Assembly (NCBI GenBank): GCA_964586995.1
Contig: CAZPJZ010000001.1
Location: 1-27,076 of the forward strand
DNA: 27,076 bases
DNA from: an uncultured Pirellulales bacterium
GTDB lineage: Bacteria; Planctomycetota; Phycisphaerae; Sedimentisphaerales; Anaerobacaceae
Direction of reading: 5' to 3'
The position numbers and the translations under genes were made by a program. The stretch's first letter is position 1. Each line of letters opens with the position of its first letter. The notes under the pieces are model-generated. The model saw nothing but the letters and a program-made list of their open reading frames with translations. It ran no database searches and was not told the origin of the DNA. Shown here piece by piece: positions 3,270 to 23,823 of the stretch.

Positions 3270-3425
3270 TGCTATAGAGCTTATGGGTATCACTCAGACA
3301 TAGTCGAACGAATAAGAATACCCAGCACAGGCTTTTAGCACTGCTGCGTCAGTTCGTTCACGGTCGGCTAAAACTGGTTAAGGGGGAAACGTCAGATAAG
3401 AGAACTGAAAATTAAGGATCGAAAA

Positions 3426-4571
3426 ATGAAAACGTCAGGAAGAATATTAAGTCTGATGCTTTTCAGTGCTCTGATGTTTACTGGACAGAACAGCCTTGCA
3501 CAGAAGACTGGAGATGTCAAAGATGTTGTCACCGTTGATGTACTCCCGCCGAACAGTCTGTACAAACAGGTATGGCAGCCATTCATTGCCCGATGGAAAA
3601 AGAATCACTATGTTGTTGCATACGGGCTGAAGCTGGACGGAAAGAAAGACATGGGTGACATCGTCTGTTCTATCACCAGAGATGGTGGCAAGAGCTGGAC
3701 TCCGCCCATTATTATCTTCGACCACCGGCTGCCCAACGGTACACAACGTTTCGCCTACGCCAATGCAGTCCTGTTCAGACCTGAAGGACAGAATACTATT
3801 TGGTGTTTTGCCATGCGGTGCCCCCTGTTCTACGGCGACAGTGAAGACAGTGAACTGTGTGCGGCCTATTGCTGTGATGGCGGGTTGTCATGGCAGCAGG
3901 TTGAGCTAAGGATGGGATTCCACTCCCCGCTTATTACCAATGCAGGTGTCGTTACTGTCAATGAGGCAGCGACCACTAAGTATTTACTTCCCGTACATCG
4001 TAACACAAAAAGGCATGATCCGAAGGGGGACAGGGAACAATTTGTGCTGGAAAGCACAAACCTGTTAAACTGGGAACTGGCAGGTTACATCCCCAGGCCA
4101 TCGAAGGTATGGATCCACGAAGGGAACATGGCTCAAGGTGATAATCCCGGTGAATTGAAAATTGTAATGCGGACCGCACAATACGAAAGCGATAAGCTGG
4201 CCCTTGAAATTCCCCGGGCCTACTCATCGGTAAGCAGGGACAATGGAAAGACCTGGTCGATGGCCGTCGAGGAGCCTGCCCTGTACAATACGGCTGCCAA
4301 AGGATTTTTCGGAAAGGATTCGAAGGACAGGCATATATACGTATATAACGATGATGAGAAAAGTGTCAGAAAAGGACTCTATTATGTCATAAAGGAACCA
4401 GGTGAAGATTGGTCGAAACCAAGACTCTTCTACTGGGATAACAATCGCAACAGCTATCCTACACTTCTTGAAAAAGAGCCCGGCATTTTTCTCTGTGTTT
4501 GGGACAGTTCAGATGATCCAGACATAAAAAGATCCGTAATAAGATTTGGCATTCTGGACCTTAGCAAATGA
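3426..4571 (+). CDS. Secreted exo-alpha-sialidase-like Asp-box beta-propeller (BNR repeat protein)
   Basis: N-terminal signal peptide; Asp-boxes SITRDGGKSW, AYCCDGGLSW and SVSRDNGKTW; HE, MRT and C-terminal SYP motifs at the positions of sialidase catalytic Glu/Arg/Tyr. The canonical RIP motif is absent. Confidence 0.7.
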   Translation: MKTSGRILSLMLFSALMFTGQNSLAQKTGDVKDVVTVDVLPPNSLYKQVWQPFIARWKKNHYVVAYGLKLDGKKDMGDIVCSITRDGGKSWTPPIIIFDHRLPNGTQRFAYANAVLFRPEGQNTIWCFAMRCPLFYGDSEDSELCAAYCCDGGLSWQQVELRMGFHSPLITNAGVVTVNEAATTKYLLPVHRNTKRHDPKGDREQFVLESTNLLNWELAGYIPRPSKVWIHEGNMAQGDNPGELKIVMRTAQYESDKLALEIPRAYSSVSRDNGKTWSMAVEEPALYNTAAKGFFGKDSKDRHIYVYNDDEKSVRKGLYYVIKEPGEDWSKPRLFYWDNNRNSYPTLLEKEPGIFLCVWDSSDDPDIKRSVIRFGILDLSK

Positions 4572-4623
4572 AATATCGATAGCATTAAAGGCATTGCCTT
4601 AGAAATGGCGGAAAGTTCGAATT

Positions 4624-5418
4624 ATGACGGGTAAAGAACTGAAGGATTCACTTAGGAGCGGCACAAGGGTGTATGGCACACTGATAGTAAGTACCTCTCC
4701 AAGATGGATGGATGTAATAGACCAACTGAATCTGGATTTCGTATTCATCGACACGGAACATATCGCCGTCGACAGGCAACAACTCTCCTGGATGTGTCAC
4801 GGATACACGGGAAAAGGATTGGCACCCGTGGTTCGAATCCCTGCTCCCGATCCGTATCAGGCCTGTATGGTATTGGATGGCGGTGCAAAGGGAATTGTCG
4901 CTCCGTATATCGAGTCCGTAAATGAAGTGAAACAGCTTATAGGTGCAGTGAAAAAAAGACCCTTAAAGGGGCAGAAACTGAGAGATTATTTGGAGGGGAA
5001 GAAAGGCCTGGAGCCCGTCTTGGCCGAATACATCGGACAACATAATGACGATCATGTGCTGATCCTAAACATTGAAAGCCAGCCGGCAATCGACCATTTA
5101 GATGAAATACTAAGAGTTCCGGGTTTTGACGCCGTATTGATCGGGCCACATGACCTCTCGTGTAACCTTGGCATTCCCGAACAGTATGACCATCCGAAAT
5201 TCAAGGCGGCAGTGGAAACCATCATCGAAAAGGCAAGAAAGGCAAATGTTGGTGCAGGAATTCATGCATTGTTTGAAGACAGTGTCGAAAAGGAGATAGA
5301 GTGGGCTAAGATGGGTGCTAATCTCATACTACATAGTGGTGATATCAATCGCTTCACACAAGTTATGCGTGATGATATTAATACATTGAGGACAGTATTG
5401 AACGATGATGCTAAATAA
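4624..5418 (+). CDS. HpcH/HpaI family class II (metal-dependent) pyruvate aldolase
   Basis: FIDTEH, VVRIP, LDGGAKGIVAPY, NIES and IGPHDLS carry the conserved His/Arg/Glu/Asp residues of the family. Confidence 0.9.
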   Translation: MTGKELKDSLRSGTRVYGTLIVSTSPRWMDVIDQLNLDFVFIDTEHIAVDRQQLSWMCHGYTGKGLAPVVRIPAPDPYQACMVLDGGAKGIVAPYIESVNEVKQLIGAVKKRPLKGQKLRDYLEGKKGLEPVLAEYIGQHNDDHVLILNIESQPAIDHLDEILRVPGFDAVLIGPHDLSCNLGIPEQYDHPKFKAAVETIIEKARKANVGAGIHALFEDSVEKEIEWAKMGANLILHSGDINRFTQVMRDDINTLRTVLNDDAK

Positions 5419-5548
5419 CCTCGTGCGGCAATCGATACATAGGATATGCTTGTTGGCAAGATCCTTAATAAAGCCATCGGACAAATTCTCTTTATCCGAC
5501 CAATATACCTGCCAAAGAGATAAATTGTGTCTGCCTTTTAATATTTGA

Positions 5549-8287
5549 ATGCCCATGAAGCAAAACACTGTTGCCAGATTAGTAATTTCTTCGCTTCTCA
5601 TGATTGCGTCACTTGCTGTTTCAGTCCATGCAACGGGACAAGAGATTCTGAGTTGGAGCCAGCTTGCCGAGCTGCCGCCGATAGAAGGGCAGGTGGTGCA
5701 GCCGGGGTTAGCTGGGGCTTTCTGCGGCATTCACAATGATGCTTTGATAATAGCGGGCGGGGCCAATTTCCCTCGACCTGTCTGGGAGTCGAAGAAGGTA
5801 TGGCATGATGATATCTATGTGCTCGTAAGGCAGTCCGGAGGCTCAGCCCGAGGCGATGAGTCCTATCACTGGATAACGGGTTTCAAGCTTGAAAAGCCCG
5901 TGGCCTACGGTGCTTCGGTTTCGAGCAGGCATGGAGTCGTATGTATCGGCGGCAATGATTCCGAACGGACATATTCGCAAGTCTTCCTGCTGCAATGGGA
6001 CCCGCAGAGCAAGAAAATCACAAGCACATCGCTGCCGAGTCTACCGGATATCTGTGCGTATTGCAGTGCCGCCATGATCGCAGAGACCATCTATGTGGCG
6101 GGAGGAACAGCCGGCCTGGGTCTCGAAACAGCCAAGAGGAATTTCTGGTCCCTTGATATGTCAAGACTCAATGATCCAGGCTCGTTCAAATGGGAACAGG
6201 TTCCTGCTTGGCCGGGGCCGTCTCGGGCGTTTGCAATCGCGGTAGCACAGCACAACGGAACAACTGATTGTCTCTACGTCATAAGCGGTCGCCGGATAAA
6301 TACCGAGGAGGAAAGTAATCCACAGGTGCAGTTTCTCACGGATGTATATGAATTTGCGCCGACGAACTATGAACCGGAAAAATACAATCCGCAAACCGGC
6401 ACCTATACGGGCAAAGTGAATCCCTGGCGAAAACGCAAAGATGTTCCTCGGTGTGTCATGGCCGGTACCGCTATAAGTGTGGGACAAAGCCATATTGTGG
6501 TGCTTGCCGGCGACGACGGCAGGTTCTATTACGAGGTCGATGAACTAAAAGACGAGCATCCTGGTTTTCCAAACGAAGCGCTGCTGTATCATACGATCAC
6601 CGATACATGGACAAGCGCCGGTTCCATTCCGGTCAATCATGTGACCACCACAGCCGTTCGTTGGGGGAACAACCCGGCACGTGATCCAATAATTATTCCA
6701 AGCGGCGAAATTCGACCCAGAGTTCGCTCTGCGAAGGTCTGGCAGGTTTGCCTGCTTGGCAGTGGCGAGCGGTTCGGAATCATCGATTTTTCTGCGATTG
6801 GAATATATCTATCGGTCGTGATTGGTGTTGGGGTGTTCTTTTCTTTTCGCAATAAAAATTCGGATGACTTCTTCCGCGGCGGCCAGCGTGTTCCCTGGCT
6901 GGTGGCGGGATTGAGCATCTTTGCGACCATGCTCAGTTCCATCACCTTTATCGCCATTCCGGCCAAGGCCTATGCCACTAACTGGGTTTACTTTACATAT
7001 AATATGACGGCCATCGCTATTACGCCTTTTGTTATTCTGCTCTTTCTTCCGTTCTTTCGAAAGATCGATGCGACAAGTGCCTATGAATACCTTGAAAAAC
7101 GATTTAATCGCCCGGCGCGTCTTTTTGCCAGTGCGTCTTTTATTCTTTTCCAAATCGGACGAATGGCGGTCGTGATGTACTTGCCGGCGCTGGCTCTGGC
7201 GGCGATAACCCCTATGTCGGAGTATCAATGTATTCTTTTGATGGGGGTATTATGTATTATCTATTGCACGATGGGCGGGCTTCAGGCCGTCGTGTGGACC
7301 GATACCATACAGACTTGCGTTCTTCTGGGTGGGGCATTGGTCAGTCTTGCATTGATTGTTTCCCGTGTAGATGGCGGCGTTGGCGGTTTCATTTCGACCG
7401 CCGCCAGGCACGGTAAATTTCACATCATAAACTGGGATTTCTCTTCAATGAGCTTTACAACAACTGCTTTGTGGGTGGTTGTTTTGGGTGGAATCGCGCA
7501 AAACCTGGTTCCATATACATCCGATATGGCGGTCGTACAGCGGTATATGTCTGTTCCGGACATGTCCAGTGCGAAAAGGGCTATCTGGACGAATGCCATT
7601 GCCGTCCTGCCAGCCTCACTTTTGTTCTTTGGGGTCGGTACGGCGCTGTTTGTTTTTTACCGGGAGTATCCCGGCCGGCTCGATCCTGTCTTTAAGACGG
7701 ATGCCATCTTCCCGCTTTTCATCGCGCGTGAACTTCCAGCCGGTATCGCCGGCCTGGTGGTAGCCGGTATTTTTGCAGCGGCGCAATCAACGATTTCCAC
7801 GAGTATGAATAGTACCTCGACGGCCTTGGTTACAGATTTTATTCGGCCACTGAATCTCATCCAATCGGAGCGAGGATATTTGCGACTTGCCCGTGTATCG
7901 ACATTTGCCCTGGGTGTTTTGGGGACGGTTTTGGCCCTGTTGTTTGCTTCATCGAACATCAGGTCGCTGTGGGATCAGTTTATGAAGATACTTGGACTGT
8001 TTGGCGGTTCTATGTGCGGACTGTTCTGTCTGGGGATATTTACCAAAAGAGCAAATGGGCAGGGGGCAATTATTGGGGCTCTGGCAGGAGCGGCCGCAGT
8101 GTTTTTGGTAGAGCGGTATACAGGCATCCATTTCTTGCTTTATGCTTTTGTGGGGATAATGGTCTGCTGCCTGTGCGGTTATTTCGCCAGTGCAATGTTT
8201 CCAGCTTCGAAAAAATCTATTGCGGGACTGACCATCCATACGTTGAACAGATTTGAGATTATGAGAAAGAAGAGTTCGTATGAATAG
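5549..8287 (+). CDS. Fusion of a Kelch-repeat sialic acid mutarotase-like (NanM-type) domain and a sodium:solute symporter (SiaT-like)
   Basis: Signal peptide, then Kelch blades (GLAGAF, IIAGGANFP, AYGASVS, CIGG, YVAGG, WPGPSR, YVISGR, HPGFP, YHTITDTW, SGEIRPRVRS). From about residue 410 it is an SSS transporter (FFRGGQRVPW, ATMLSSITFIAIPAKAY, SAYEYLEKRF, VVWTDTIQ, DMAVVQRY, AAQSTISTSMNS). One uninterrupted 912-aa ORF; the start may be ATG 5555. Confidence 0.85.
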   Translation: MPMKQNTVARLVISSLLMIASLAVSVHATGQEILSWSQLAELPPIEGQVVQPGLAGAFCGIHNDALIIAGGANFPRPVWESKKVWHDDIYVLVRQSGGSARGDESYHWITGFKLEKPVAYGASVSSRHGVVCIGGNDSERTYSQVFLLQWDPQSKKITSTSLPSLPDICAYCSAAMIAETIYVAGGTAGLGLETAKRNFWSLDMSRLNDPGSFKWEQVPAWPGPSRAFAIAVAQHNGTTDCLYVISGRRINTEEESNPQVQFLTDVYEFAPTNYEPEKYNPQTGTYTGKVNPWRKRKDVPRCVMAGTAISVGQSHIVVLAGDDGRFYYEVDELKDEHPGFPNEALLYHTITDTWTSAGSIPVNHVTTTAVRWGNNPARDPIIIPSGEIRPRVRSAKVWQVCLLGSGERFGIIDFSAIGIYLSVVIGVGVFFSFRNKNSDDFFRGGQRVPWLVAGLSIFATMLSSITFIAIPAKAYATNWVYFTYNMTAIAITPFVILLFLPFFRKIDATSAYEYLEKRFNRPARLFASASFILFQIGRMAVVMYLPALALAAITPMSEYQCILLMGVLCIIYCTMGGLQAVVWTDTIQTCVLLGGALVSLALIVSRVDGGVGGFISTAARHGKFHIINWDFSSMSFTTTALWVVVLGGIAQNLVPYTSDMAVVQRYMSVPDMSSAKRAIWTNAIAVLPASLLFFGVGTALFVFYREYPGRLDPVFKTDAIFPLFIARELPAGIAGLVVAGIFAAAQSTISTSMNSTSTALVTDFIRPLNLIQSERGYLRLARVSTFALGVLGTVLALLFASSNIRSLWDQFMKILGLFGGSMCGLFCLGIFTKRANGQGAIIGALAGAAAVFLVERYTGIHFLLYAFVGIMVCCLCGYFASAMFPASKKSIAGLTIHTLNRFEIMRKKSSYE

Positions 8288-9812
8288 ACGCGATTTTCTC
8301 CGATTATCAGTGCTTAGCATAACATCAGTGTTTTCACGCAGGCTTATGGCATCTGAGCGTAAGCCTAATGTGCTCTTCATTGCCCTGGACGACATGAACG
8401 ATTGGATCGGTTCTTTAGGCGGATATTCAGAAAACGTGCACACACCGAATTTCGACCGTCTTGGGCGCAAGGGCGTCACATTCACCAACGCCCACAGTCC
8501 GTCGACTGTTTGCAACCCATCACGAACAGCGATAATGACCGGATTGCGGCCATCCACAACCGGCATATATAACAATGGACAATGGTGGCGGCCTGCTCTG
8601 CCTGATGTTGTGACTATGCCTGAGCACTTTCGAAAAAGCGGTTACCACGTTGAAGGCGGAGGAAAGATTTTTCACCATACGCTCGGTAACAACCCACCCG
8701 GGATTTGGGACAATTATTATCCCCAGGTTCAAGACGACCCGTGGCACTATGATTATCCCGTTCCAGGACAACATGAACCTAAGAAAGGCTTGCATTGGCC
8801 GCAAGGTTTTCCACTAAATGGTATTGAAAACGTAAGACTTGGAAAGAAACCGCCCGGTAACTACCGCTCATTTGACTGGGGCCCTTTTGACAAACCGGAT
8901 ATTCAGATGGGAGATGGTCAGATGGTCCAGTGGGCGATAGATTTTCTAAAAAGACCGCACGATAAACCGTTCTTTTTGGCCGCTGGAATTTACCGTCCGC
9001 ATCTGCCATGGTATGTCCCGAAAAAGTATTTTGATTTATATCCTTTAGATAGCATAAGACTGCCCGAGGTTAAAAGCGATGATCTGGACGATGTCCCTGC
9101 CGTAGGTAGAAAGATGGCCGAAGCTCGACATGCCGATTTCGAGCTCGTAAAGAAGGCAGGGAAATATAAAGAGGCAGTCCAGGCGTATTTGGCTTCCATC
9201 AGTTTTGCCGATGCGCTGGTTGGGCTTCTATTAGATGCTTTGGAGAAAAGCTCGTACCGAGACAATACGTTCATCGTAGTTTGGTCCGACCATGGCTGGC
9301 ATTTGGGCGAGAAGGGGGCATGGCACAAGCAGACACTTTGGGAACGAGCAACGCGCGTCCCGTTCTTTATCGTGGCGCCGCCGGTCACACAGCCTGGGTC
9401 GGTTTGTAATCACCCTGTAAACCTGATCGATATTTACCCGACACTTGTTGATTTATGTGGCTTGAAAGCAAATACGAAATTAGATGGGATCAGCCTCGTT
9501 CCACTTCTGAAAAATCCGGAAGCTGCCTGGGAGCGCCCTTCGGTCATTACGTATGAACGAGGAAACCACGCCGTCAGGTCTGAGCGATGGCGGTATATCC
9601 GCTACAATGACGGCACAGAAGAACTGTATGACCATGACAACGACCCCCACGAGTGGACGAACCTGGCAGGAGATTCAAACTTTGATTCAGCCAAGCAGAA
9701 GTTGGCGAAATGGCTCCCGAAAAGTGATGCGCCGCCGGCTCTTTCAAAGAGCGCTTACCATTTTGATCCGGATACCTACTCTTGGAGCAGGAAGGAGAAG
9801 TCACGGCAATGA
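8280..9812 (+). CDS. Cys-type sulfatase (iduronate-2-sulfatase/choline-sulfatase-like), Tat signal
   Basis: MNRRDFL twin-arginine signal; PNVLFIALDD; CNPSR-TAIMTG formylglycine motif; GIYRPHLPW; WSDHGWHLGEK. Overlaps the upstream gene by 8 nt. Confidence 0.92.
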   Translation: MNRRDFLRLSVLSITSVFSRRLMASERKPNVLFIALDDMNDWIGSLGGYSENVHTPNFDRLGRKGVTFTNAHSPSTVCNPSRTAIMTGLRPSTTGIYNNGQWWRPALPDVVTMPEHFRKSGYHVEGGGKIFHHTLGNNPPGIWDNYYPQVQDDPWHYDYPVPGQHEPKKGLHWPQGFPLNGIENVRLGKKPPGNYRSFDWGPFDKPDIQMGDGQMVQWAIDFLKRPHDKPFFLAAGIYRPHLPWYVPKKYFDLYPLDSIRLPEVKSDDLDDVPAVGRKMAEARHADFELVKKAGKYKEAVQAYLASISFADALVGLLLDALEKSSYRDNTFIVVWSDHGWHLGEKGAWHKQTLWERATRVPFFIVAPPVTQPGSVCNHPVNLIDIYPTLVDLCGLKANTKLDGISLVPLLKNPEAAWERPSVITYERGNHAVRSERWRYIRYNDGTEELYDHDNDPHEWTNLAGDSNFDSAKQKLAKWLPKSDAPPALSKSAYHFDPDTYSWSRKEKSRQ

Positions 9813-11278
9813 AAAGACGCACCTTTCTAAAGATATTGGGTATAGGAGCCTTATCACAGGCGTTTCCTGCTCTCTCATGGTCACAGAAGGCGAAAAGGCC
9901 CAACGTTCTGTTTATTGCAATCGATGATCTGCGCGGCGCCGTAGGCTGCCTGGGTGACAGGATTGCGAAAACAGCGAACATGGACAAACTGGCAAGACAC
10001 GGGACTGTTTTTCTAAACGCTTATTGTCAGCAGGCAGTGTGTAATCCGTCAAGAGCTTCCGTGATAACCGGCCTGCGCCCGGATACGCTCAAGGTGTGGG
10101 ACTTGAAAACGCATTTCCGCGAGCACCACCCGGATATTGTAACACTTCCACAATATTTCAAGCAGCATGGCTACTATACCCAGAGTTTCGGCAAGGTTCT
10201 CCACGGCCAGGGAGCGCCGTCGACGGACCCACCGAGCTGGTCGGCGGAGCCAGTCTGGGACCACTGCACCAGGCACGACCTGTATGCCCTGCCTGAAAAC
10301 CAGCCGGGCAGCGAAAACGACAAACAAGCCGCCGCAGAATGTGCAGATGTGCCGGATGAAGCCTACGTTGACGGCAAGGTGGCTGGCAAAGCAGTAAAAA
10401 AGATTGAAGAGCTCGCAGAAAATGGTAAGGCGTTCTTCCTGGCAGTAGGTTTTCGCAAACCGCATTTGCCTTGCTCTGCTCCTAAGAAATACTGGGATAT
10501 GTATAAGCGAAAAACTTTCGAGAACAATGATTGGCCAGCACTTAATAGACCAAAAGACGGGCCGGATATTGCCCTGCACAATTGGAGGGAGCTTCGAGGT
10601 TATACCGACATCCCAGACATCGGGGATGTGCCTGCGGAAAAAGCAGCCGAAGTTCGCCACGGCTATTACGCTGCTACAAGTTATACCGATGCTCAAATTG
10701 GCAAGCTGATTGATACACTTGATAGATTTGGCTTGCGAGAAAACACTATTATCTGCCTCTGGTCAGATCACGGCTTCCACCTTGGTGAGCATACCCTTTG
10801 GTGCAAAACCAGTAATTACGAATTTGATGCACGGGTACCATTGATCATATCTGCACCGCAAAAGAAGAAGGGGCAAGTCTGCAGAAAGCTGGTGGAACTC
10901 GTTGATATGTATCCTACGTTGGTTGAGTTGGCCGGATTGGCTGTACCAGGCGGTTTAGAGGGGACTTCTATGGTCCCATTGCTCGATGACCCACAGCGAG
11001 GTTGGAAAAAAGCAGCCTTCACACAGTTTCCGCGCCCGCCGTACTATAAGAAAAGTTTTGACGCTATGGGCTACTCGGTTCGCACCGAGCAGTTTCACTA
11101 TATAGAATGGATTGATGTCAAGAAAAAGCAGCCGATAGCGTCTGAGCTGTATGACCATCGTTCAGACCCTTATGAGCTTACAAATCTTGCACTGAAAAAG
11201 GAACAGCAAACGACTGTCAGGCAGCTTAGCAAACTTCTTGAGGATGGCTGGAAGACCGCATTGCCGGCAAGGAGATAA
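9809..11278 (+). CDS. Cys-type sulfatase (iduronate-2-sulfatase-like), Tat signal
   Basis: MKRRTFL signal at ATG 9809 (AAGGAG RBS, ATGA overlap with the previous stop); PNVLFIAIDD; CNPSR-ASVITG; GFRKPHLP; WSDHGFHLGEH. Confidence 0.92.
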   Translation: MKRRTFLKILGIGALSQAFPALSWSQKAKRPNVLFIAIDDLRGAVGCLGDRIAKTANMDKLARHGTVFLNAYCQQAVCNPSRASVITGLRPDTLKVWDLKTHFREHHPDIVTLPQYFKQHGYYTQSFGKVLHGQGAPSTDPPSWSAEPVWDHCTRHDLYALPENQPGSENDKQAAAECADVPDEAYVDGKVAGKAVKKIEELAENGKAFFLAVGFRKPHLPCSAPKKYWDMYKRKTFENNDWPALNRPKDGPDIALHNWRELRGYTDIPDIGDVPAEKAAEVRHGYYAATSYTDAQIGKLIDTLDRFGLRENTIICLWSDHGFHLGEHTLWCKTSNYEFDARVPLIISAPQKKKGQVCRKLVELVDMYPTLVELAGLAVPGGLEGTSMVPLLDDPQRGWKKAAFTQFPRPPYYKKSFDAMGYSVRTEQFHYIEWIDVKKKQPIASELYDHRSDPYELTNLALKKEQQTTVRQLSKLLEDGWKTALPARR

Positions 11279-11281
11279 ACA

Positions 11282-12793
11282 GTGACGCCAACAAGAAGAC
11301 AACTCATGAAATCTGCATTGGGTACGGCGATGGCCTTTGGATTCCCAGGATTATCCGGTGCACGCGAAAGAGGCCAATCAAAACCGAACATTCTGCTCAT
11401 GGTGGCAGAAGACCATGGTCTGCAGTTGAGCTGCTATGGTGATAAACATATTTCCACCCCGAATTTGGATGCCCTGGCAAAGACGGGGGTCCGATTTGAA
11501 AATACGTATGTTACCCAGGCTGGCTGCAGCCCATCAAGGGCTTCGATACTCACGGGGCAGTATCCTCACAAGAACGGCCAGATCGGCTTGGCTACACATG
11601 GTTTACGTATGTACAAAGACAACATGCCTAATCTTACAACTTATCTCAAAGGCGCTGGCTATCGAACAGAGATCATCGGAAAGATACATGTCAATCCGGA
11701 ATCTGCCTTCGTGTTCGACTTCAAGGCATTTCCAAAAAGCAATTTCAATAACCGTCCTGTAAGGCAGTTCGCCCGCTCATCTGGAGAATTCTTCCGGGCT
11801 TCGGATGAACCGTTCCTAATGTGGATAAGCTTCCCAGATGCGCATCGTCCCTTCCACGACCAGCAGGATGGTATCCCCGCCAGGTTCATGGGACCATATG
11901 ATGTTGAGACCCTGCCTATGGTTGGCGTATCTACTCGGCAGACACTCCAGACGACAGCGAGCTATTACAACTGTATGCAGCGTTTAGACGTAGCTGTTGG
12001 GATGGTTCTAAAGGAATTGGCCAATTCCGGGAAGGCTGATAACACACTTATCATCTATCTTTCAGACCACGGCCCTGATTTCCCTCGCGCGAAAAAGACA
12101 ATCCGTGAAGGCGGAAGCCGTGTGCCGATGATAATGAGATGGACGGGACATTTGCCGAAAGGGAAAGTCGAGTCTCGTTTGGTTTCCAGCCTTGACATCC
12201 TGCCGACCATACTTGAAATAGTTGGCACAAAACCACATCAAAATGATCTGGACGGCCGCTCCTTGATGCCTTTGTTCTACAAGGAATCCGCACCATGGCG
12301 AGAATACCTGTTCACCGAATTCACGTTGCACTGGCCTGAAACATATTATCCGGGTCGTGCCGTACGGGACAGCCGTTTCAAGCTTGTCCACAACCTGTTG
12401 CCTCATCGCGAAAATCCGGTATATGACATCTACCTTGTTAAACAAATGCCTAAGACGTTTACCCCCGAGGAACTCAAGGATATGCCAGAACACGTTCGGG
12501 AGGCATACAAAATTTTTCGGCAGCCTCCGGAATTCGAGTTGTATGATCTTCAAAATGATCCGTGGGAGTTTCACAACCTTGCCAAAGACTCACGCTATGT
12601 GGAACAGTTCATACGTCTGAAAAAACGCTTGGCCGAATGGCAGGAAGAAACGAATGATCCCCTGCGGCACAAGCACATCCTTGACAAATTCACAACCGAG
12701 AATGACGCCACAATGACCAGTGGAAAATATATAAGAAAGAAATCTGGGCAATGGAAGTATTCCGAATACTTCTTTGCAGGAGATGATATGTGA
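11282..12793 (+). CDS. Cys-type sulfatase (N-sulfoglucosamine sulfohydrolase/sulfamidase-like), Tat signal
   Basis: GTG start, TRRQLM signal; PNILLMVAED; CSPSR-ASILTGQYPH; DAHRPF; SDHG; FPRAK. Confidence 0.9.
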   Translation: MTPTRRQLMKSALGTAMAFGFPGLSGARERGQSKPNILLMVAEDHGLQLSCYGDKHISTPNLDALAKTGVRFENTYVTQAGCSPSRASILTGQYPHKNGQIGLATHGLRMYKDNMPNLTTYLKGAGYRTEIIGKIHVNPESAFVFDFKAFPKSNFNNRPVRQFARSSGEFFRASDEPFLMWISFPDAHRPFHDQQDGIPARFMGPYDVETLPMVGVSTRQTLQTTASYYNCMQRLDVAVGMVLKELANSGKADNTLIIYLSDHGPDFPRAKKTIREGGSRVPMIMRWTGHLPKGKVESRLVSSLDILPTILEIVGTKPHQNDLDGRSLMPLFYKESAPWREYLFTEFTLHWPETYYPGRAVRDSRFKLVHNLLPHRENPVYDIYLVKQMPKTFTPEELKDMPEHVREAYKIFRQPPEFELYDLQNDPWEFHNLAKDSRYVEQFIRLKKRLAEWQEETNDPLRHKHILDKFTTENDATMTSGKYIRKKSGQWKYSEYFFAGDDM

Positions 12794-12863
12794 AGATGAG
12801 ACCCATTTCATGTGGTCTAAGTCGTCCCCCTCTTTTGTATAGCTTAGAAGGAGAGTGACAAGT

Positions 12864-14666
12864 ATGAATAAGCTAAATAGACGCCAGTTTTTGCAGGTTG
12901 GCACGGCTTCAGGCGCGGTCTTGGTTTGGGGATCGGCAAAGAGTTCATCCAGGGCACAGCAATCCAGCAAGATAAGCACAAAAAGCGAAAGACCGAATAT
13001 TCTTTGGATATGCACCGATCAGCAGCGCTGGGACACGATTGGTGCGCTTGGAAATCATTACGTTCACACTCCCAATATTGACCGTATTGTAAACGAAGGT
13101 GTAGCGTTCGATCATGCATTCTGCACGTCGCCGATCTGCACCCCCAGCCGCGCCGGTTTCCTGACCGGCATGTATCCCTGCGCAGTCAAAGCATGTAAGA
13201 ATGGCGCGGAATTATGGGCCGAACAGGCCCCGCTCGTGACAAAGCTCTTTAGAGACATGGGTTACGTATGCGGTCTGGCCGGTAAGCTTCATCTGGCATC
13301 CGCAATGAAGAACGACAGGGAAACCCGGCCAAGAGACGATGGATATTCGGTATTTCACTATAGCCATAGTCCACATCAGGGGGGCCAGAAAAATGATTAT
13401 CTGGTATGGCTGGAGAAACGCGGCTATTCGTATAAAGACCTTGGCAAACTGGATGGCCAGGCACACGCACGCCTTCACCAGACAACGTGGTGTACCGACC
13501 GCGCCATAGATTTCATACACGCACATAAAAAGCAGCCCTGGCTTTTCAGTGTCAACATCTATGATCCTCACCCACCTTTCAACGCACCACCCTCGTATGT
13601 GTCCCGGTACGACACTTCTTCTTTGCCGGGCCCTGCATTTAGAGATTCTGATATCGAAGAGAAAGGTCGCTTCAGCAGAATCGTGCTTCAGAAGAAGCCC
13701 AGGCATTACTCGCAGTCCGATGCCAAACAGCACCAGGCTGACTATTGGGCCCAGATCGATCTTATCGACGAGAACGTGGGACGCCTCCTTTCGACGCTCG
13801 AAGAGACCGAGCAGGACAAAAGCACCGTAATCATCTTCACCGCCGACCACGGCGATATGTGCGGAGATCACGGAATCCGCGCCAAGGGCTGCCGCTTCTA
13901 TGAGGGCCTGATCAGAGTGCCGCTCATATTCTGGTCCCCAGCCCGGTTCAATAAAGGACTTGTCAGCAAGGCACTGGTCGAACTGACGGATATCGCGCCT
14001 ACTTTGCTGGATATTGTAGGAGAGCGAATTCCCAGTCGTATGCAGGGAAGAAGTCTTCTACCGATTCTTCGCGGCGAGGCGAATCCTGACAGACATCGCG
14101 AATTTGTGCGCTGCGAATTCTATGATGCGCTTGACCCAGAGGGACTGCTCCCTGCCTTTGCGACCATGATCCGAACAAGAAGTCTAAAGCTTGTCGTGTA
14201 TCACGGACACACGCTCGGCGAGCTGTTCGATCTGTCGAACGACCCAAAAGAGTTTGACAACGTGTGGGATCAGCCGGACTATGAAGAGAAGCGCCTCGTC
14301 CTTCTCAAACGTTGTTTCGATGCCACAGTCCTTGCATGCAGTGCGCAAATGCCTCTGCTTGAATCGCAATCTGGCGTTTCGGCTATGGCGGGATTGCAGG
14401 AGGGAGAAAGTGTTAGAAACGTCGGCCGTATATCGGCAGCAGGGACACGGTGGGAAACGGTGTTCCAGAGCGACTCCTACCGCATGGTGGTTGACCATAT
14501 GGGAAGGAGCTCTGCGTTGTTCGACTTGAGGAAGGATTCCGGCAAGGAATCGAATGTGTGGGGTGATGCCATGTACCGCAAGGTACGTTTTGATCTGCTC
14601 AAGAAATGTTTTGATGCCACAGTCTTTGCGATCGACACAGGGCCTCAGCGGGTGGCACGTTATTGA
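12864..14666 (+). CDS. Cys-type sulfatase (choline-sulfatase-like), Tat signal, tandemly duplicated C-terminal domain
   Basis: MNKLNRRQFL signal (ATG 12864 is better spaced from AAGGAG than GTG 12855); PNILWICTDQQR; CTPSR-AGFLTG; DPHPPF; ADHGD. Two copies of the ...LFDL..D..E..NVW....Y...R..LLK.CFDATV tail. Confidence 0.9.
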   Translation: MNKLNRRQFLQVGTASGAVLVWGSAKSSSRAQQSSKISTKSERPNILWICTDQQRWDTIGALGNHYVHTPNIDRIVNEGVAFDHAFCTSPICTPSRAGFLTGMYPCAVKACKNGAELWAEQAPLVTKLFRDMGYVCGLAGKLHLASAMKNDRETRPRDDGYSVFHYSHSPHQGGQKNDYLVWLEKRGYSYKDLGKLDGQAHARLHQTTWCTDRAIDFIHAHKKQPWLFSVNIYDPHPPFNAPPSYVSRYDTSSLPGPAFRDSDIEEKGRFSRIVLQKKPRHYSQSDAKQHQADYWAQIDLIDENVGRLLSTLEETEQDKSTVIIFTADHGDMCGDHGIRAKGCRFYEGLIRVPLIFWSPARFNKGLVSKALVELTDIAPTLLDIVGERIPSRMQGRSLLPILRGEANPDRHREFVRCEFYDALDPEGLLPAFATMIRTRSLKLVVYHGHTLGELFDLSNDPKEFDNVWDQPDYEEKRLVLLKRCFDATVLACSAQMPLLESQSGVSAMAGLQEGESVRNVGRISAAGTRWETVFQSDSYRMVVDHMGRSSALFDLRKDSGKESNVWGDAMYRKVRFDLLKKCFDATVFAIDTGPQRVARY

Positions 14667-16673: not shown

Positions 16674-16776
16674 CTATTGATTATATGTTTTCCGAATAAC
16701 GAAAAACTGTCAGACTCCGAGTACTCGGCGTCCGCGTGCAGCCCATTTAATTTTTGTCGCTCGTGTAATGAATAGT

Positions 16777-16864
16777 ATTCAGCGTTCAGCGTACAGCGTT
16801 TAGGTATTATAATTCTGTCTCCTCTCTTCTGACTGCTGTCCCTTCGACTTCGCTCAGGACAAGC
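16777..16864. repeat. Heptamer arrays plus REP-like element
   Basis: attcagc-gttcagc-gtacagc-gtttagg (16777-16804), tctgtct-cctctct-tctgact-gctgtcc (16814-16841), then cccttcgacttcgctcaggacaagc (16840-16864), which resembles 17213-17237. Confidence 0.55.
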
Positions 16865-16873
16865 CTCTGTTAT

Positions 16874-17086
16874 TTATGCGCTTAGGGAAAATCTATGAGC
16901 CTTTTTCTCAACGGTTCGGATTAAATCTTGAATTGTGCCGACTTCCCTTTCTTCAAAATATGCCTCTCCGCACTGCTGGCATACCCAGGCAGGGACGTTG
17001 TCAATTGTCACATGGCAGCCATTTCTGTCAATATGCAGTGGTGCTGTCCCCTGTTTCATGATTGCCTGACAGTGAATACATTTCAT
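16874..17086 (-). CDS. YgiT-type zinc finger protein (MqsA-antitoxin N-domain-like)
   Basis: 70 aa, MKCIHC ... IDNVPAWVCQQCGEAYF: two CxxC pairs with the characteristic VPAxVCxxCGE signature. Confidence 0.85.
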   Translation of the reverse strand: MKCIHCQAIMKQGTAPLHIDRNGCHVTIDNVPAWVCQQCGEAYFEEREVGTIQDLIRTVEKKAHRFSLSA

Positions 17087-17176: not shown

Positions 17177-17400
17177 CCGCCTTATGTCCGGCGGGTAAAT
17201 CCTGACCGTCGCCCCATTCGGCAGACTCAGGGCAGGCGTACCGGCGACGGCTAAACGTAAAAGGGCAAAGGATATTATTGTTGTGATTGTGGGAAAAGGC
17301 AAGGAAAATCCGTCGCTCGCCGCTGGTGAGCCGTGACCCTTGCAGAATCGAGTATCGGGCATCGAGTTCCCACAGGCGGGACGAGAATATCGAATGCAGG
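17177..17400. repeat. Cluster of REP-like hairpins and heptamer arrays
   Basis: ccgcc-ttatgtcc-ggcgg hairpin; cccattcggcagactcagggcaggc (17213-17237) flanked by the inverted repeat ccgtcgcc (17206-17213)/ggcgacgg (17243-17250); aatcgag-tatcggg-catcgag (17346-17366). Confidence 0.45.
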
Positions 17401-18242: not shown

Positions 18243-20306
18243 TTAGCTGTTTATCAGTTGGTAGGCCCTGATAAGTTCGCCTACGCTCCATGCCTGGGCG
18301 ACGCAGCCTTTCGGCAGGTGGGGGCTGTCGCCATCAAATATCTCTGAGACGCTGCCCAGGCAGGCTTGCTCGGTTAGATGCGAAAGCAGCGGCTGAATGA
18401 ATTCGGCGGCCTTTTTCTTACTCGCCCGGCTGAAGCCGTTGACCTTAAGATAGGCTTCCACGAACGGTCCGATCAGCCAGGGCCAAACTGTGCCCTGGTG
18501 GTAGGCCTGGTCTCGGTCTTTCTGTGGGCCGGTGTATTTGCCCTTGTACTCGGGATGGGCGACGTTTAGTGTTCGCAGACCGTAAGGCGTGAGCAGCTCT
18601 TTGTGTACCGTATCAACAATAGAGGTTTGCTGCTGTGGCGATAACGGCGGGGCAAACCGAAGGGATACGGCAAATATCTGGTTCGGGCGAAGGCTCGCAT
18701 CGGCTGTACCATCCGGAAGGACACAATCGTTCAGGTAGCCTGCCGCTTCGTTCCAGAACAGCGAGCAGAAACTGCCGCCCACCTTTTCTGCCATAGTCTG
18801 GTAGTTGTGTGCGTGTTCGCTGTTGCGGCTGGCGTAAAAGTGGGCCAGCTCGCAAAGGCCATTATACCACAGGGCGTTGACCTCGACCGCTTTGCCGTAT
18901 CGCGGCGTAAAAGCCACGCCGTCGTACTTGGCGTCCATCCAGGTCAGTTGCGTTTCCTGGCTGCCTGCTGTCATAAGGCCGTCTGCGTCGGCGTGGATGC
19001 CGAACCGCGTGCCGTTGTGATAGGACTGGACGATCCAGCGGATGGTAGGCAGAAGCTGCTGCGTAAAGGTTTGTGAGTCGCCGCTAACATCCAGGTAGGC
19101 AAAGGCCGCGTTTATAAACCAGAGAGACGCGTCCACACTGTTAAAGAAGGCGGTGTCACTGTAATCATCAAATCGGTTAGGGATCATACCCTGGTCTGCT
19201 GCCTGCGCAAACGTGCACAGGACGGATTTTGCCTCTTCGAATCTGCTGGTTGCCAGTAATAGGCCGGGCAGAGCCACAAAGGCATCTCTGCCCCAGTCGG
19301 CGAACCATGGGAAGCCGGCCAAGACAGTGACCCGTCGCTCGTGCTCCGTGCCCCGAGCGACAATCGACGAGCGACGAGCGATGAACTGGTCTGCGGCCAG
19401 GCAGAGCACTTTGGACTTTTCATCTTTGGGTCTGGCGGCAGTAATCACTTCATTGTGATGTCTGTGCAAATCGTCCTTGACTGCATCAAGCTCGTATTGT
19501 GTATTGCGTATTGCGTATTGTGGTCTTTTTTCGCACGACGCATCACGCATTACGCATGGCGAAAGGCTCGCCCAGAAGACAACCTCGGTTGGCTCTTCTA
19601 TCCGGCACTTGAAAAAACCGGGTGTCCACAGATCCTCGCTGAAGTTCTGGCCTCTTTCCCTGTCACAACGGTAAATGAAATTGAACCACCATTGCGGGTC
19701 CTTCTCAAAAGTAGCGCCCGGACAGCTTAAAAACAGCCCGCAGCTTCCCGGTATGTCGTGGCGGACCAGCAGGCCGTCACCGAACCACGCTGAACACAAT
19801 GGCGTGTACGACCTTTGCAGACTGTGAAAGTCTCGCATACCGACAAAGGGGCGCATCACAAATTCCGCGGGGCCATCCACCCTTGTAAAGCTGTATGCTA
19901 TAGCGACCGTATCGGCATCCCGGACCAGATACAGGGATTTAGTGAGTTTGAGCTTGTTCAATTCATAACCGAAATGCACGCCGGTGTCTTGATGGAATTG
20001 CGTTAGAAAGCCAAACCCTGCCGGGGCGAATTTGTCGGGAAACTCAAAAGTTGAAAGGTTGAATATCTTCTGCTCAAGTATGACCATCTCCAGGCAGTTG
20101 GCCAGAGCCATTATCCTGTTGACCGGCGGATTGATGGCTCCTACGAGAAGTCCGTGATAGCCTCGTGTGTTGCAGCCGACAATCGTTGATGATGCGTAGC
20201 TGCCGCGCTCGTTTGTTAACAGCCATTCCTTGGTCAATAGGTCGTCGATAGCGTGGTTCCTTGTTGACGTGGACACAGTTTGTGTAGTTTTAGTCTTTTG
20301 CAGCAT
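18243..20306 (-). CDS. Glycogen debranching enzyme (amylo-alpha-1,6-glucosidase, GH133-type)
   Basis: EWLLTNERGSYASST, RGYHGLL, AGFPWFADWGRDAFVALPGL, GMIPNRF, NSVDASLWF, LTWMDAK, PRYGKAVEVNALWYN, LRPNQIFA, LLTPYGLRTL, YHQGTVWPWLIG, SEIFDG, AQAWSV. Start at ATG 20306 (GGAG upstream). Confidence 0.92.
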   Translation of the reverse strand: MLQKTKTTQTVSTSTRNHAIDDLLTKEWLLTNERGSYASSTIVGCNTRGYHGLLVGAINPPVNRIMALANCLEMVILEQKIFNLSTFEFPDKFAPAGFGFLTQFHQDTGVHFGYELNKLKLTKSLYLVRDADTVAIAYSFTRVDGPAEFVMRPFVGMRDFHSLQRSYTPLCSAWFGDGLLVRHDIPGSCGLFLSCPGATFEKDPQWWFNFIYRCDRERGQNFSEDLWTPGFFKCRIEEPTEVVFWASLSPCVMRDASCEKRPQYAIRNTQYELDAVKDDLHRHHNEVITAARPKDEKSKVLCLAADQFIARRSSIVARGTEHERRVTVLAGFPWFADWGRDAFVALPGLLLATSRFEEAKSVLCTFAQAADQGMIPNRFDDYSDTAFFNSVDASLWFINAAFAYLDVSGDSQTFTQQLLPTIRWIVQSYHNGTRFGIHADADGLMTAGSQETQLTWMDAKYDGVAFTPRYGKAVEVNALWYNGLCELAHFYASRNSEHAHNYQTMAEKVGGSFCSLFWNEAAGYLNDCVLPDGTADASLRPNQIFAVSLRFAPPLSPQQQTSIVDTVHKELLTPYGLRTLNVAHPEYKGKYTGPQKDRDQAYHQGTVWPWLIGPFVEAYLKVNGFSRASKKKAAEFIQPLLSHLTEQACLGSVSEIFDGDSPHLPKGCVAQAWSVGELIRAYQLINS
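19334..19382. repeat. Palindromic heptamer array inside the debranching-enzyme CDS
   Basis: gtcgctc-gtgctcc-gtgcccc-gagcgac-aatcgac-gagcgac-gagcgat; gtcgctc is the reverse complement of gagcgac. Confidence 0.65.
19494..19559. repeat. Palindromic heptamer array (66 nt) inside the debranching-enzyme CDS
   Basis: gtattgt-gtattgc-gtattgc-gtattgt, a 10-nt spacer, then cgcacga-cgcatca-cgcatta-cgcatgg; the two arms are imperfect reverse complements. Confidence 0.75.
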
Positions 20307-20385
20307 TAACACGGCGTTACTCCCGGGACACGACCACGATCTATAAATTGGACCTGCTCTGGGCATCAGAAGCGAGTCAGATCAT

Positions 20386-23558: not shown

Positions 23559-23744
23559 CTATAAATCCTGTGCTCTGACCGTGCTGCGACGGTTGGCTTT
23601 TGTTCGGACAACGGCAGCATCGAGCATCGAGTAAACACGTTCACTAATTGCTCCGAGAGCCTCCGATGACGTCATCATCTTTTTGCTCTTGATGTACGCC
23701 TTCACTTTGCTTGCCACGATCAAAGGTTCTCTCTTTTTTGCCAT
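23559..23744 (-). CDS. Bacterial singlet histone-fold protein (Bd0055/face-to-face-type histone)
   Basis: 61 aa MAKKREPLIVASKVKAYIKSKKMMTSSEALGAISERVYSMLDAAVVRTKANRRSTVRAQDL after a GGAGG RBS. It has the LIVxSKVK alpha1 start, the MxTS loop, a long alpha2 and the RxTVxxxD histone clamp, matching the Bdellovibrio/Leptospira histones as I recall them. Confidence 0.85.
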   Translation of the reverse strand: MAKKREPLIVASKVKAYIKSKKMMTSSEALGAISERVYSMLDAAVVRTKANRRSTVRAQDL

Positions 23745-23823
23745 TCCGCAAATCCTCCCTGTCAAAATTTAAACCTTGTAGGCCGGCACCAATCCTTCGG
23801 TCCGGCACGCTATTAGAGTCCTT

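Follow-up and report, generated by a model that had tools for sequence, protein, structure and literature searches.

The window analysed here, a stretch of 27,076 nucleotides from an uncultured Pirellulales bacterium, exhibits on its minus strand an intact ORF corresponding to a glycogen debranching enzyme (GDE) family protein. The full ORF is 707 aa long, and its start codon is probably Met21 (window position 20306), which yields a protein of 687 aa. Pfam assigns residues 46-262 to GDE_N and residues 324-700 to GDE_C; between the two lies a complete hairpin element built of heptamers. No intein or intron signatures were seen in this gene. The features are as follows:

18243-20366, minus strand: glycogen debranching enzyme family protein (GDE_N + GDE_C), intact ORF
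19492-19562, minus (mRNA) strand: complete heptamer-hairpin element of 71 nt, its extent taken from the family consensus
19532-19562, minus strand: 5' arm of the element in the mRNA sense, TCG followed by four TNNTGCG units
19523-19531, minus strand: A-rich hairpin loop, AAAAAAGAC in the mRNA sense
19493-19520, minus strand: 3' arm of the element in the mRNA sense, four CAATACG units, one of them being CAATACA
19326-19385, minus strand: second, unrelated heptamer hairpin of the same gene, TCGCTCG units ... CGAGCGAC, peptide IARRSSIVARGTEHERRVT, ORF residues 329-347

In the mRNA sense the element reads TCG-CCATGCG-TAATGCG-TGATGCG-TCGTGCG-AAAAAAGAC-CA-CAATACG-CAATACG-CAATACA-CAATACG-A. Its coding part (19494-19562) comprises 23 codons, the first for Ser, and is read as SPCVMRDASCEKRPQYAIRNTQY at ORF residues 269-291, in the linker of GDE_N and GDE_C. 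An earlier note, made from the letters of the window, had described an in-frame element of four plus four units at the junction of the N-terminal and catalytic domains. The placement and the unit count hold, and its 66 nt and 22 codons become 71 nt and 23 codons, with 3 nt more at the high-coordinate end.

The imperfect heptamer hairpin of that note is confirmed. Tandem Repeats Finder (TRF) detects CGTATTG (4.0 copies, 90% matches) at 19493-19520 and ACGCATC (2.9 copies) at 19538-19557, and the arms form an imperfect inverted repeat (12 nt, 92% complementarity). The predicted fold has -17 kcal/mol for the plus strand of the DNA (z = -2.95) and -27.5 kcal/mol for the sense RNA (z = -3.5), each equalled by only 1 of 200 shuffles. 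Every unit of the 5' arm differs from TATTGCG, the perfect complement, at two of seven positions, and each heptamer pair consists of five Watson-Crick pairs and a 2x2 mismatch; this asymmetry is common to all Planctomycetota copies described below. The 3'-arm peptide has a 7-aa period, QYAIRNT, encoded by three CAATACG units in three phases. The whole peptide exhibits two Cys residues spaced by eight (C-x7-C), nearly invariant across copies. With up to two mismatches, GTATTGCGTATTG occurs four times in the window (0.49 expected), a count reached in none of 100 shuffles.

Other candidates in the window were rejected. Three intergenic pieces (17185-17265, 16815-16885 and 16765-16815) fold no better than shuffles and exhibit a resemblance at the peptide level only, and a heptamer run at 23616-23631 lies inside a small minus-strand ORF (23559-23765). 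By its position, this ORF corresponds to the conserved 61-aa gene of orthologous loci.

In an AlphaFold2 (AF2) model of the enzyme, the fold is a glycoside hydrolase (GH) type beta-sandwich plus an (alpha/alpha)6 domain. The element is largely coil with pLDDT <50 (residues 252-268 of P0001), between a strand (240-250) and a helix (273-291). Where the earlier note expected a surface loop, the model has a predicted disordered loop in the inter-domain hinge. A sequence search of the PDB matched eukaryotic GDE C-terminal domains only, and therefore no solved structure covers the linker. The second hairpin (19326-19385) sits in a second variable loop of the enzyme and, in the source metagenomes, belongs to the high-copy repeats, with a peak word depth of about 5-32 times that of its flanks.

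An assembly artefact had been named at the outset as a possible refutation, and an assembly or binning origin, through the collapse of a repeat or its splicing into the gene, was considered here. The element sequence is indeed a repeat, at which the X3 and X4 run assemblies are interrupted. However, Logan contigs of two independent runs (X1 and X2, 4298 nt each) span 19200-19900 and cross the element; over this span they differ from the window at just two bases (19523 G>T, 19525 C>T), which lie in the hairpin loop and turn EKRPQ into EKKTQ. The contigs exhibit no length variant, although contigs cannot reveal rare variants. Orthologues from independent studies and sources (JGI, ENA, NCBI) also carry the element at the same codon position. 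Since two independent run assemblies span it, the element is not an assembly artefact, an explanation to which we assign a negligible probability.

A dispersed family in coding sequences

An exact search for the two-arm pattern returned 16 copies in GTDB species genomes (15 in Planctomycetota, one in Omnitrophota) and 36 in metagenome contigs. These amount to about 50 near-identical copies, almost all from Planctomycetota MAGs and sediment metagenomes; all come from MAGs or metagenomes, seen in loci of 8-22 kb around the matches. The copies have in common an idiosyncratic third unit, TGATGCG, and a loop beginning with GCGAAAA. Related elements in other coding sequences, which the earlier note had proposed to look for, are indeed present: at least 19 unrelated host genes carry the element in frame, open throughout and free of stops. 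Hosts confirmed by Pfam are GDE, PurQ-type GATase_5, polyprenyl synthase, MnmE, a PBP transpeptidase, ATP synthase alpha/beta, a radical SAM/SPASM protein, three Mur ligases (MurC/E/F), LexA, NAD synthase (NadE), PS decarboxylase, LpxK and TruA. In LexA and NadE the element again occupies an inter-domain linker.

Some 90% of the copies are located within long ORFs, in the sense orientation. The strand bias (18 of 19 host genes, P = 4e-5) is accompanied by a frame bias: frame A, SSCVVRDASCEK..NTQYAIRNTQY, is used in 14 of the 19 (P = 7e-7 against 1/5). Frame A has a GRAVY of -0.93 and frame B one of -1.12; in the antisense frames it ranges from +0.49 to -0.17. The lone antisense case is found in an ORF without a Pfam match, between hydrophobic stretches that by eye are transmembrane segments.

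No direct duplication of a target site flanks any of the about 50 copies, and no gene associated with the copies was seen at the loci examined. Viral contigs yielded no copy of the element, and there is therefore no sign of phage carriage. A 12-sequence profile (A4) of the element and its flanks found only spurious ORFs of up to 77 aa on heptamer arrays, and no host proteins. Some copies hold smaller repeats: PRLRSGQA in P0010, PRPRSGQA in L247, and PS[AT]SL..G (PSASLGTG) in P0020, P0144, P0196 and L235. The loop of P0227 contains a second heptamer hairpin.

These data bear on the notion that slippage or duplication within the linker produced a gene-specific, microsatellite-like expansion instead of a dispersed element. 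Heptamer arrays are common in these genomes: 1.4 Mb contain 191 arrays of at least 18 nt with many different units, 77 of them having an inverted partner within 60 nt. A comparison of enrichment across array periods 4-12 was confounded by array length, and we therefore state only that heptamer arrays and inverted pairs are common. The slippage-like steps in arm length described below and the minimal form LSSCEKKTQYDIEAI in P0113 also agree with local slippage. However, the near-identical copies in unrelated genes, with the odd TGATGCG and the shared loop start, contradict it, as do contigs of the same metagenomes that carry the element between unrelated flanks. A composite variant with PS[AT]SL..G within the 5' arm, recurring in GDE, TruA and MurF, likewise argues against a gene-specific origin, which we regard as very improbable.

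Linker replacement and conservation among orthologues

We compared 120 GDE orthologues and 120 TruA orthologues. Among the former, 94 lack the heptamer-element signature at the site; this count relies on a pattern and overlooks a few copies that are degenerate or nested. The element appears in at least eight separate clades of the GDE tree, each with close sisters that lack it. In every clade a 23-24-codon element stands in place of the whole ancestral linker of 11-17 aa, with identical boundaries. The earlier expectation of a simple insertion of 22 codons thus fails: many orthologues do lack the element, but their gap is only about 8-12 aa instead of about 22, because the whole linker is replaced. 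For instance, L087 and L042 are about 91% identical across the gene, yet 72 nt of element in one stand where the other has the 48-nt linker typical of the clade. Other repeat families occupy the same linker site in other GDE orthologues. In TruA, whose basal form is 246 aa long with the turn TAEDK, about 38 of the 120 orthologues carry the element.

Among six GDE orthologues the element DNA is 84.5% identical, compared with 68% for the upstream coding flank (49% at third codon positions) and 56% for the downstream flank. Since the element is more conserved than its host gene at the DNA level and patchily distributed over the orthologue tree, it is, on these sequence comparisons, not an old relic. 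The TruA copies exhibit arms better conserved than the hairpin loop, whose sequence and length vary freely. Arms of one or four units are found in GDE (P0034, P0095, P0113) and TruA (P0125, P0126, P0140, P0142), and the differences among orthologues always amount to three heptamers (21 nt, 7 aa), which preserves the frame. A phase-variable contingency locus was considered and rejected, given that the orthologues differ only by such three-unit steps and that the X1 and X2 contigs agree in length.

The conservation of the arms could also mean that the hairpin is kept for a function of the nucleic acid, such as a transcription pause or attenuator, mRNA stability or processing, protein binding, or a recombination or replication signal, the peptide being a by-product. 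Besides the excess of arm identity over that of the flanks and the persistence of the TruA arms around a changing loop, the pairing of 93.9% of stem cells in 26 copies and a fold better than shuffles (z about -3) point in this direction. However, compensatory changes were found in none of 24 pairs, no better than in shuffles, and variation only breaks pairs. The sense RNA has a mean of -26.1 kcal/mol against -28.2 kcal/mol for the antisense, and folds better in only 14 of 44 copies. The element resides in unrelated housekeeping genes that share no regulatory logic, Rfam returns only a chance match to NEAT1_2 below threshold, and a recent spread predicts high conservation equally well. A nucleic-acid function thus appears unlikely. 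RNA stability is also rejected as the cause of the strand bias, which is better explained by the encoded peptide, the sense RNA being no more stable than the antisense.

Short hairpins inside protein-coding sequence are also known from the byp elements of Magnusiomyces (yeast) mitochondria and the coding gap of T4 gene 60, which remain untranslated and are under no need to preserve the frame. A comparable bypassing of the element by the ribosome, or its removal from RNA or protein, would suit a compact hairpin whose peptide has no predicted structure. The element differs from these systems in that it keeps its frame, its lack of stops and its hydrophilicity. In a skipped segment, selection would maintain neither the uninterrupted frame seen in the 19 host genes counted, nor the 21-nt steps between arm variants in GDE and TruA, nor the strong bias to hydrophilic frames, and we therefore hold this explanation to be highly unlikely.

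If the element is translated, the peptide might have been co-opted, either as a redox or metal site (C-x7-C) or as a flexible hinge tuning domain movement. The two nearly invariant Cys residues, the conservation of the peptide among GDE orthologues of 69-80% identity and the repeated occupation of inter-domain hinges (GDE, LexA, NadE) are consistent with this. On the other hand, about 14 unrelated proteins contain the same peptide, and its conservation therefore tracks the DNA element. Close sister orthologues lack the peptide, other repeat families take its place at the same site, and it is predicted to be disordered. Co-option is accordingly improbable, and the domestication suggested in the earlier note is not supported.

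Comparison with known repeats

In-frame palindromic repeats are best known from Rickettsia, where they raised the question whether selfish DNA seeds new protein segments. The Rickettsia palindromic elements (RPE) are dispersed short palindromes of roughly 100-150 nt, many of them in frame in unrelated and often essential genes, read through as an extra, probably surface-exposed peptide and patchy among orthologues. They were reportedly described by Ogata and colleagues in 2000 and by Claverie and Ogata in 2003, and are also cited in PMC3733652. The present element is likewise a dispersed palindrome, in frame in at least 19 unrelated intact ORFs and patchy in orthologues. It differs in being about 70 nt long, in consisting of two tandem heptamer arrays whereas RPEs are of unique sequence, in the 21-nt steps of its arms and in replacing the GDE linker instead of simply adding to it. 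Its hosts are free-living sediment Planctomycetota (and one Omnitrophota), whereas RPEs belong to obligate intracellular alpha-proteobacteria. According to a passage in PMC3733652, an RPE interrupts a tRNA pseudouridine synthase gene of R. conorii; for the present element, TruA is among the hosts. The RPE analogy drawn in the earlier note thus stands for a dispersed in-frame heptamer palindrome forming a disordered loop at a domain junction, and falls for simple insertion, while domestication is not supported. The best reading is a new family that acts like RPEs and is set apart from them by lineage and make-up.

REP/BIME sequences, including GTAG- and CGTC-tagged REPs, can lie wholly within ORFs of known proteins and exhibit G-T pairs in their stems (Di Nocera et al. 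2013, PMC3733652), and REPs have been reported in Planctomycetes (PMC3733652). They resemble the present family as high-copy imperfect palindromes, and the element starts with T-CGTC-G, although CGTC recurs at every unit junction of an element of about 70 nt with a 7-nt period. REPs are single palindromes of 20-40 bp that for the most part lie outside genes, downstream of them, and are linked to RAYT (Y1 HUH) transposases, in contrast to the longer, heptamer-periodic and mostly genic, sense-strand element. A predominantly extragenic REP is rejected given the share of copies inside long ORFs. A MITE is rejected as well, since no target-site duplication flanks any of the about 50 copies and arms plus loop make up the whole element.

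Cyanobacterial heptamer arrays (STRR), in work said to be by Elhai and colleagues (2008, Genome Res), form hairpins that host small dispersed repeats. The likeness to the Nostoc STRR extends to inverted tandem heptamer arrays forming a hairpin and to very small repeats nested in it, here PRLRSGQA and PSASLGTG. The difference resides in the units (TCGTGCG and CAATACG) and in the host phylum, Planctomycetota and not Cyanobacteria. To our knowledge, the cyanobacterial STRR examples are mainly intergenic or in RNA genes, with no frame-biased coding family.

MacGregor (2015, PMC4679880) describes intergenic direct repeats of the heptamer TAACTGA from Beggiatoaceae, Cyanobacteria and Bacteroidetes, and long SSRs rich in heptamers are cited in a passage of the same paper. 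These arrays share with our element a 7-nt period and the occurrence of one unit across distant phyla: CAATACG arrays are also found in Chloroflexota, Kiritimatiellota, Bacteroidota, Nostoc and others, usually just upstream of genes. TAACTGA arrays are direct, placed in 5' regions and built of a unit with stop codons, whereas the Planctomycetota family is a two-arm hairpin of fixed asymmetric sequence within genes. The earlier note knew of no account of such coding elements in this lineage, and the literature that could be searched, which leaves out most subscription journals, yielded none either.

Proposed history

On sequence comparisons, we propose with a probability of about 0.78 that the segment 19492-19562 belongs to a dispersed family of non-autonomous palindromic repeats and is a copy that is selfish, translated and carried as a tolerated passenger loop. 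The home of the family is best explained as uncultured Planctomycetota (records labelled Sedimentisphaerales, Phycisphaerae or "Pirellulales"). The element would be transcribed and translated together with the debranching enzyme as a hydrophilic, disordered loop of 23 residues at the hinge that joins the N-terminal beta-sandwich to the (alpha/alpha)6 catalytic domain, a passenger and no functional part of the enzyme. Copies at new sites may arise by copy-and-paste or by templated repair, leaving no target-site duplication. From the frame bias we infer selection for tolerated copies: those with no stops, a length that is a multiple of three, a hydrophilic frame and a site in a permissive loop or inter-domain linker would be retained. 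The arms would lengthen and shorten by replication slippage, with only the 21-nt (7-aa) steps surviving in genes, the pattern seen among the orthologues.

In GDE, the linker allele bearing the element most likely spread by homologous recombination; alternatively, it may have been re-created during repair, with deletion of the old linker. Two observations sit uneasily with a selfish passenger. Identical boundaries and the loss of the old linker in at least eight clades misfit simple random insertion, and the much higher conservation of the arms than of the loop and the flanking coding sequence would also fit selection on a DNA or RNA hairpin.

A more far-reaching version is possible but doubtful: that Planctomycetota and their neighbours harbour an undescribed class of "coding-adapted" mobile hairpins, still active and represented by this family, including the following steps of spread and loop generation. 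The divergence of the 5' arm from the perfect complement may fall on precisely those two positions of each heptamer by which the hydrophobic SYCVLRIAYCE becomes the hydrophilic SSCVVRDASCE. Such a hydrophilic read-through would allow the element to colonise loops and hinges of essential proteins. It might spread by a dedicated mechanism recognising hairpins or heptamers, or by break repair templated on ectopic copies. If this mechanism could replace existing linkers, the element would generate new protein loops.

Implications

At the practical level, these elements break short-read assemblies and distort marker-gene alignments and trees in the lineages concerned, and mini-ORFs of the QYAIRNT type inflate the number of "hypothetical protein" calls. 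For the biology of the family, the finding places RPE-like behaviour in free-living, uncultured sediment Planctomycetota and in a much simpler, more tractable element that consists of two heptamer arrays with a loop. Its rules are clear: one strand, one or two frames, 21-nt arm steps, and sites at hinges and turns. Natural pairs of orthologues with and without it exist that are about 90% identical, and several different repeat families can occupy the sites. The element thus lends itself to the study of how disordered loops are tolerated and acquired by proteins, how heptamer hairpins are mobilised, and why 7-nt arrays recur across phyla.

Structure of the element and its host gene

The heptamer-hairpin element lies within an ORF encoding a glycogen debranching enzyme family protein (GDE). 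The features concerned are as follows.

18243-20366, minus strand: host ORF
19492-19562, minus strand: whole element, in mRNA sense TCG-CCATGCG-TAATGCG-TGATGCG-TCGTGCG-AAAAAAGAC-CA-(CAATACG)x4-A
19493-19520, plus strand: first array, CGTATTG x4 (TRF)
19538-19557, plus strand: second array, ACGCATC x2.9 (TRF)
19326-19385, minus strand, GDE gene: second, unrelated heptamer hairpin, TCGCTCG units / CGAGCGAC
2238-14666: DHDPS-family lyase, BNR sialidase-like protein, HpcH aldolase, NanM-Kelch/SSF symporter fusion, four tandem sulfatases

The CGTATTG and ACGCATC arrays form an imperfect inverted repeat, which folds better than dinucleotide shuffles both as single-stranded DNA (z = -2.95) and as sense RNA (-27.5 kcal/mol, z = -3.5). 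Allowing up to 2 mismatches, the 13-mer GTATTGCGTATTG is present 4 times across the window where 0.49 are expected, and no shuffle gives as many. The earlier note had placed the element at 19494-19559, correct within 3-4 nt. Its coding part corresponds to ORF residues 269-291 (SPCVMRDASCEKRPQYAIRNTQY), where three CAATACG units, each in another of the three phases, generate the 7-aa period QYAIRNT.

Pfam identifies GDE_N (residues 46-262) and GDE_C (residues 324-700) in the host ORF; its twin in the database begins at Met21, for a length of 687 aa. The nearest named relatives are MAGs labelled Planctomycetota, Phycisphaerae, Sedimentisphaerales or (binchicken) Pirellulales; the best species-representative genome exhibits 65% identity only. 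The gene belongs to a conserved glycogen cluster (GT4/GT5 glycosyltransferase, GH57, GDE, DUF6498). Elsewhere in the window are four sulfatases and sialic-acid genes, and the genes at 2238-14666 look like a sulfated-glycan/sialic-acid utilisation cluster of the kind typical of these Planctomycetota.

An AF2 model (120 sequences, pTM 0.85) exhibits a beta-sandwich plus an (alpha/alpha)6 fold, the architecture of GH94, GH63, GH116 and GDE enzymes. Most of the element is modelled as coil with pLDDT <50 (residues 252-268 of the orthologue P0001), between a strand (240-250) and a helix (273-291). A sequence search returned no solved structure covering this linker.

The element is real DNA. The region is present in four sediment-metagenome runs, all from one study. 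Logan contigs of two runs (4298 nt each) span 19200-19900 and differ by only two substitutions (19523 G>T, 19525 C>T), both within the hairpin loop. The assemblies of the other two are broken at the element, as expected of a repeat. Additional contigs match only 19501-19549 within unrelated flanks, and therefore represent other copies.

Replacement of a variable linker in GDE

By eye, 12 of 120 GDE orthologues carry the full element at the same site (P0001, P0004, P0009, P0010, P0011, P0019, P0020, P0026, P0029, P0030, P0048, P0058). Three carry forms shorter by exactly 7 aa, or three heptamers (P0034, P0044, P0095), and P0113 has a minimal form, LSSCEKKTQYDIEAI. By pattern rather than by eye, the set divides into 12 full and 2 short elements, 12 members of the AVAGT family and 94 orthologues with none of these; this count overlooks a small number of degenerate or nested copies. 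In most orthologues the conserved motifs W-A-x-L-S and D-I-x-A-V are joined by an unrelated, clade-specific linker of 11-17 aa. The orthologues most closely related to the window's own protein (P0002, P0003, P0005-18) have other repeat families there, among them AVAGTPALSLSNGATDP and AERLAVAGTATD arrays. Five loci (L081, L085-L088) preserve the element codon for codon in their DNA. In the GTDB representative L001, the linker (~6330-6430) reads LSSYVTRNA followed by a masked N run at the element position.

In a neighbour-joining tree (664 gap-poor columns) the distribution is patchy: at least 8 separate clades contain the element, every one with close element-free sisters. In every with/without sister pair the whole linker is exchanged for the element at identical boundaries. 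The clearest pair is locus L087 (protein P0029) and locus L042 (P0106), with ~91% DNA identity over the gene and 93-95% beside the site; L087 has 72 nt of element where L042 has the clade-typical 48 nt (GSSGKFAADAGELKA). The gap is therefore 8-12 aa rather than the ~22 aa predicted, and the event is a replacement: of the in-frame insertion proposed earlier, the frame holds and the plain insertion does not. A further difference between these two proteins (87% identity) is an 8-aa block, RDPALREP; P0052 and P0056 have a similar one, apparently at an equivalent position of the gene.

A dispersed family with preferred frame and strand

CAATACG arrays occur in many phyla, mostly directly upstream of genes, and are often matched on the other side by an array of near-perfect complementarity. 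Arrays of 3-28 units (loci L089-L168) were seen in Chloroflexota (many Anaerolineae), Kiritimatiellota (Pontiella), Bacteroidota, Omnitrophota, Nostoc, Burkholderia and a Methanosarcinales MAG. At L105 (~7000-7100) and L130 (~7150-7230) the element is in frame immediately upstream of a GFTLTEL prepilin-type motif (e.g. MRNASRVMRTKLDTRNTQYAIRNTSSGFTLTELIIV), and may be part of the signal/leader peptide, or 5' UTR, of type IV pilin-like genes.

The two-arm form, searched with the pattern GCGTRATGCGTCNTGCGA...CGCAATACGCAATAC, yielded 16 copies in GTDB species genomes (15 Planctomycetota, 1 Omnitrophota), 36 in metagenome contigs and none in viral contigs. The family consensus is TCG-TCGTGCG-TCGTGCG-TGATGCG-TCGTGCG-AAAAA..-ACG-(CAATACG)x4-A. 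The odd third unit is common to all copies, as is a 5' arm departing from perfect complementarity at 2/7 positions; no target-site duplication is visible around them. About 90% lie inside long ORFs. The Pfam-confirmed hosts are:

GDE, PurQ-type amidotransferase, polyprenyl synthase, MnmE, ATP synthase alpha/beta
radical SAM/SPASM protein, three Mur ligases, PS decarboxylase, LpxK, TruA
PBP transpeptidase: two copies within one protein
LexA: linker between DNA-binding and S24 domains
NAD synthase: linker between CN_hydrolase and NAD_synthase

Two copies or partial copies occur at different sites of single proteins, ASCVVRDAYREKGNPSNAIRDTQYAIRE and SSCVVRDASCEKENTQYAIRNTQY in the PBP of L258, and HINTQYAIHNTQYE plus one full copy in the MurE of L234.

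Over independent host genes (n=19), 14 use frame A (SSCV[VM]RDASCEK..NTQYAIRNTQY, GRAVY -0.93) and frame B (TRRASCVMRRAKN.RNTQYAIRNT, GRAVY -1.12) accounts for 4; a TGA codon shuts frame C. In antisense the reading is hydrophobic, VLRIAYCVLRLFFARR..., and was seen once, in a ~680-aa ORF lacking a Pfam match, flanked by hydrophobic stretches that by eye are transmembrane segments. Binomial probabilities are 7e-7 for frame and 4e-5 for strand.

TruA provides a second case. The basal protein (246 aa) has a five-residue turn, TAEDK; at this turn the element is inserted almost cleanly in ~38 of 120 orthologues. Arms are conserved in these copies, with 1 or 4 units each, the same 21-nt steps of three heptamers as in GDE; the hairpin loop is expanded and freely variable. 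A composite variant with PS[AT]SL..G within the 5' arm is found in GDE (P0020), TruA (P0144, P0196) and MurF (L235), which argues for the copying of whole variant elements between genes.

Conservation of the hairpin

Among GDE orthologues the element is 84.5% conserved, against 68% for the surrounding coding sequence (third codon positions, 49%). This excess, together with arms that outlast the loop in TruA, makes constraint at the DNA or RNA level possible. However, although 93.9% of stem cells are paired (26 copies), no stem pair of these copies exhibits compensatory changes, the shuffle control being equal; the sense RNA is no more stable than the antisense RNA, and Rfam gives no match. We consider that the high conservation mainly reflects recent or repeated acquisition and homogenisation driven by slippage.

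Other small repeats

The 19326-19385 hairpin encodes IARRSSIVARGTEHERRVT in a second variable loop, just ahead of the conserved LAGFPWF motif; orthologue peptides of its family include RATSHERR / EPRATSH. Its word depth in the source metagenomes peaks at ~5-32 times the flanks, and this family is therefore far more abundant than that of 19492-19562.

The minus strand of intergenic ~17190-17260 (between 16673 and 17443) reads ...RLAVAGTPALSLPNGATV... and matches the peptide AVAGTPALSLSNGATDP, which orthologues P0005-P0018 have in frame at the GDE linker site. A second family of small repeats is apparently represented here, intergenic in the window and coding in orthologues; the stretch folds no better than shuffles. 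Intergenic ~16838-16870 and 16778-16800 contain CCCTTCGACTTCGCTCAGGACAAGCC, a 'FDFAQDK / LRSGQA'-type sequence adjoined by a TTCAGCG x3.3 heptamer array. A related peptide, PRLRSGQA, sits within two copies of the heptamer element, those of P0010 and of an LpxK (L247). Other short inserts are DTRCWMLDAR...IENRAS, KPLGRRADD, GTPLRGNQ and, in an MnmE, HGLPARERHGQDGHAT. Together with the RDPALREP block, the many short inserts suggest several small repeat families in proteins of these lineages.

Relation to known elements

Intragenic REPs and Rickettsia palindromic elements (RPEs) have been described (PMC3733652), as have heptamer direct repeats (PMC4679880). By their defining features, RPE, REP and MITE families each exclude the present element; its closest anatomical likeness is to cyanobacterial heptamer hairpins. 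We found nothing on such elements in Planctomycetota in the searchable literature, which leaves most subscription journals outside its scope. The core idea of the earlier note, a selfish palindromic repeat read through as protein with RPE-like behaviour, is borne out. The element is probably translated and neutral for the enzyme; its arms would change length by slippage, and it would spread by recombination or a repair-templated process.
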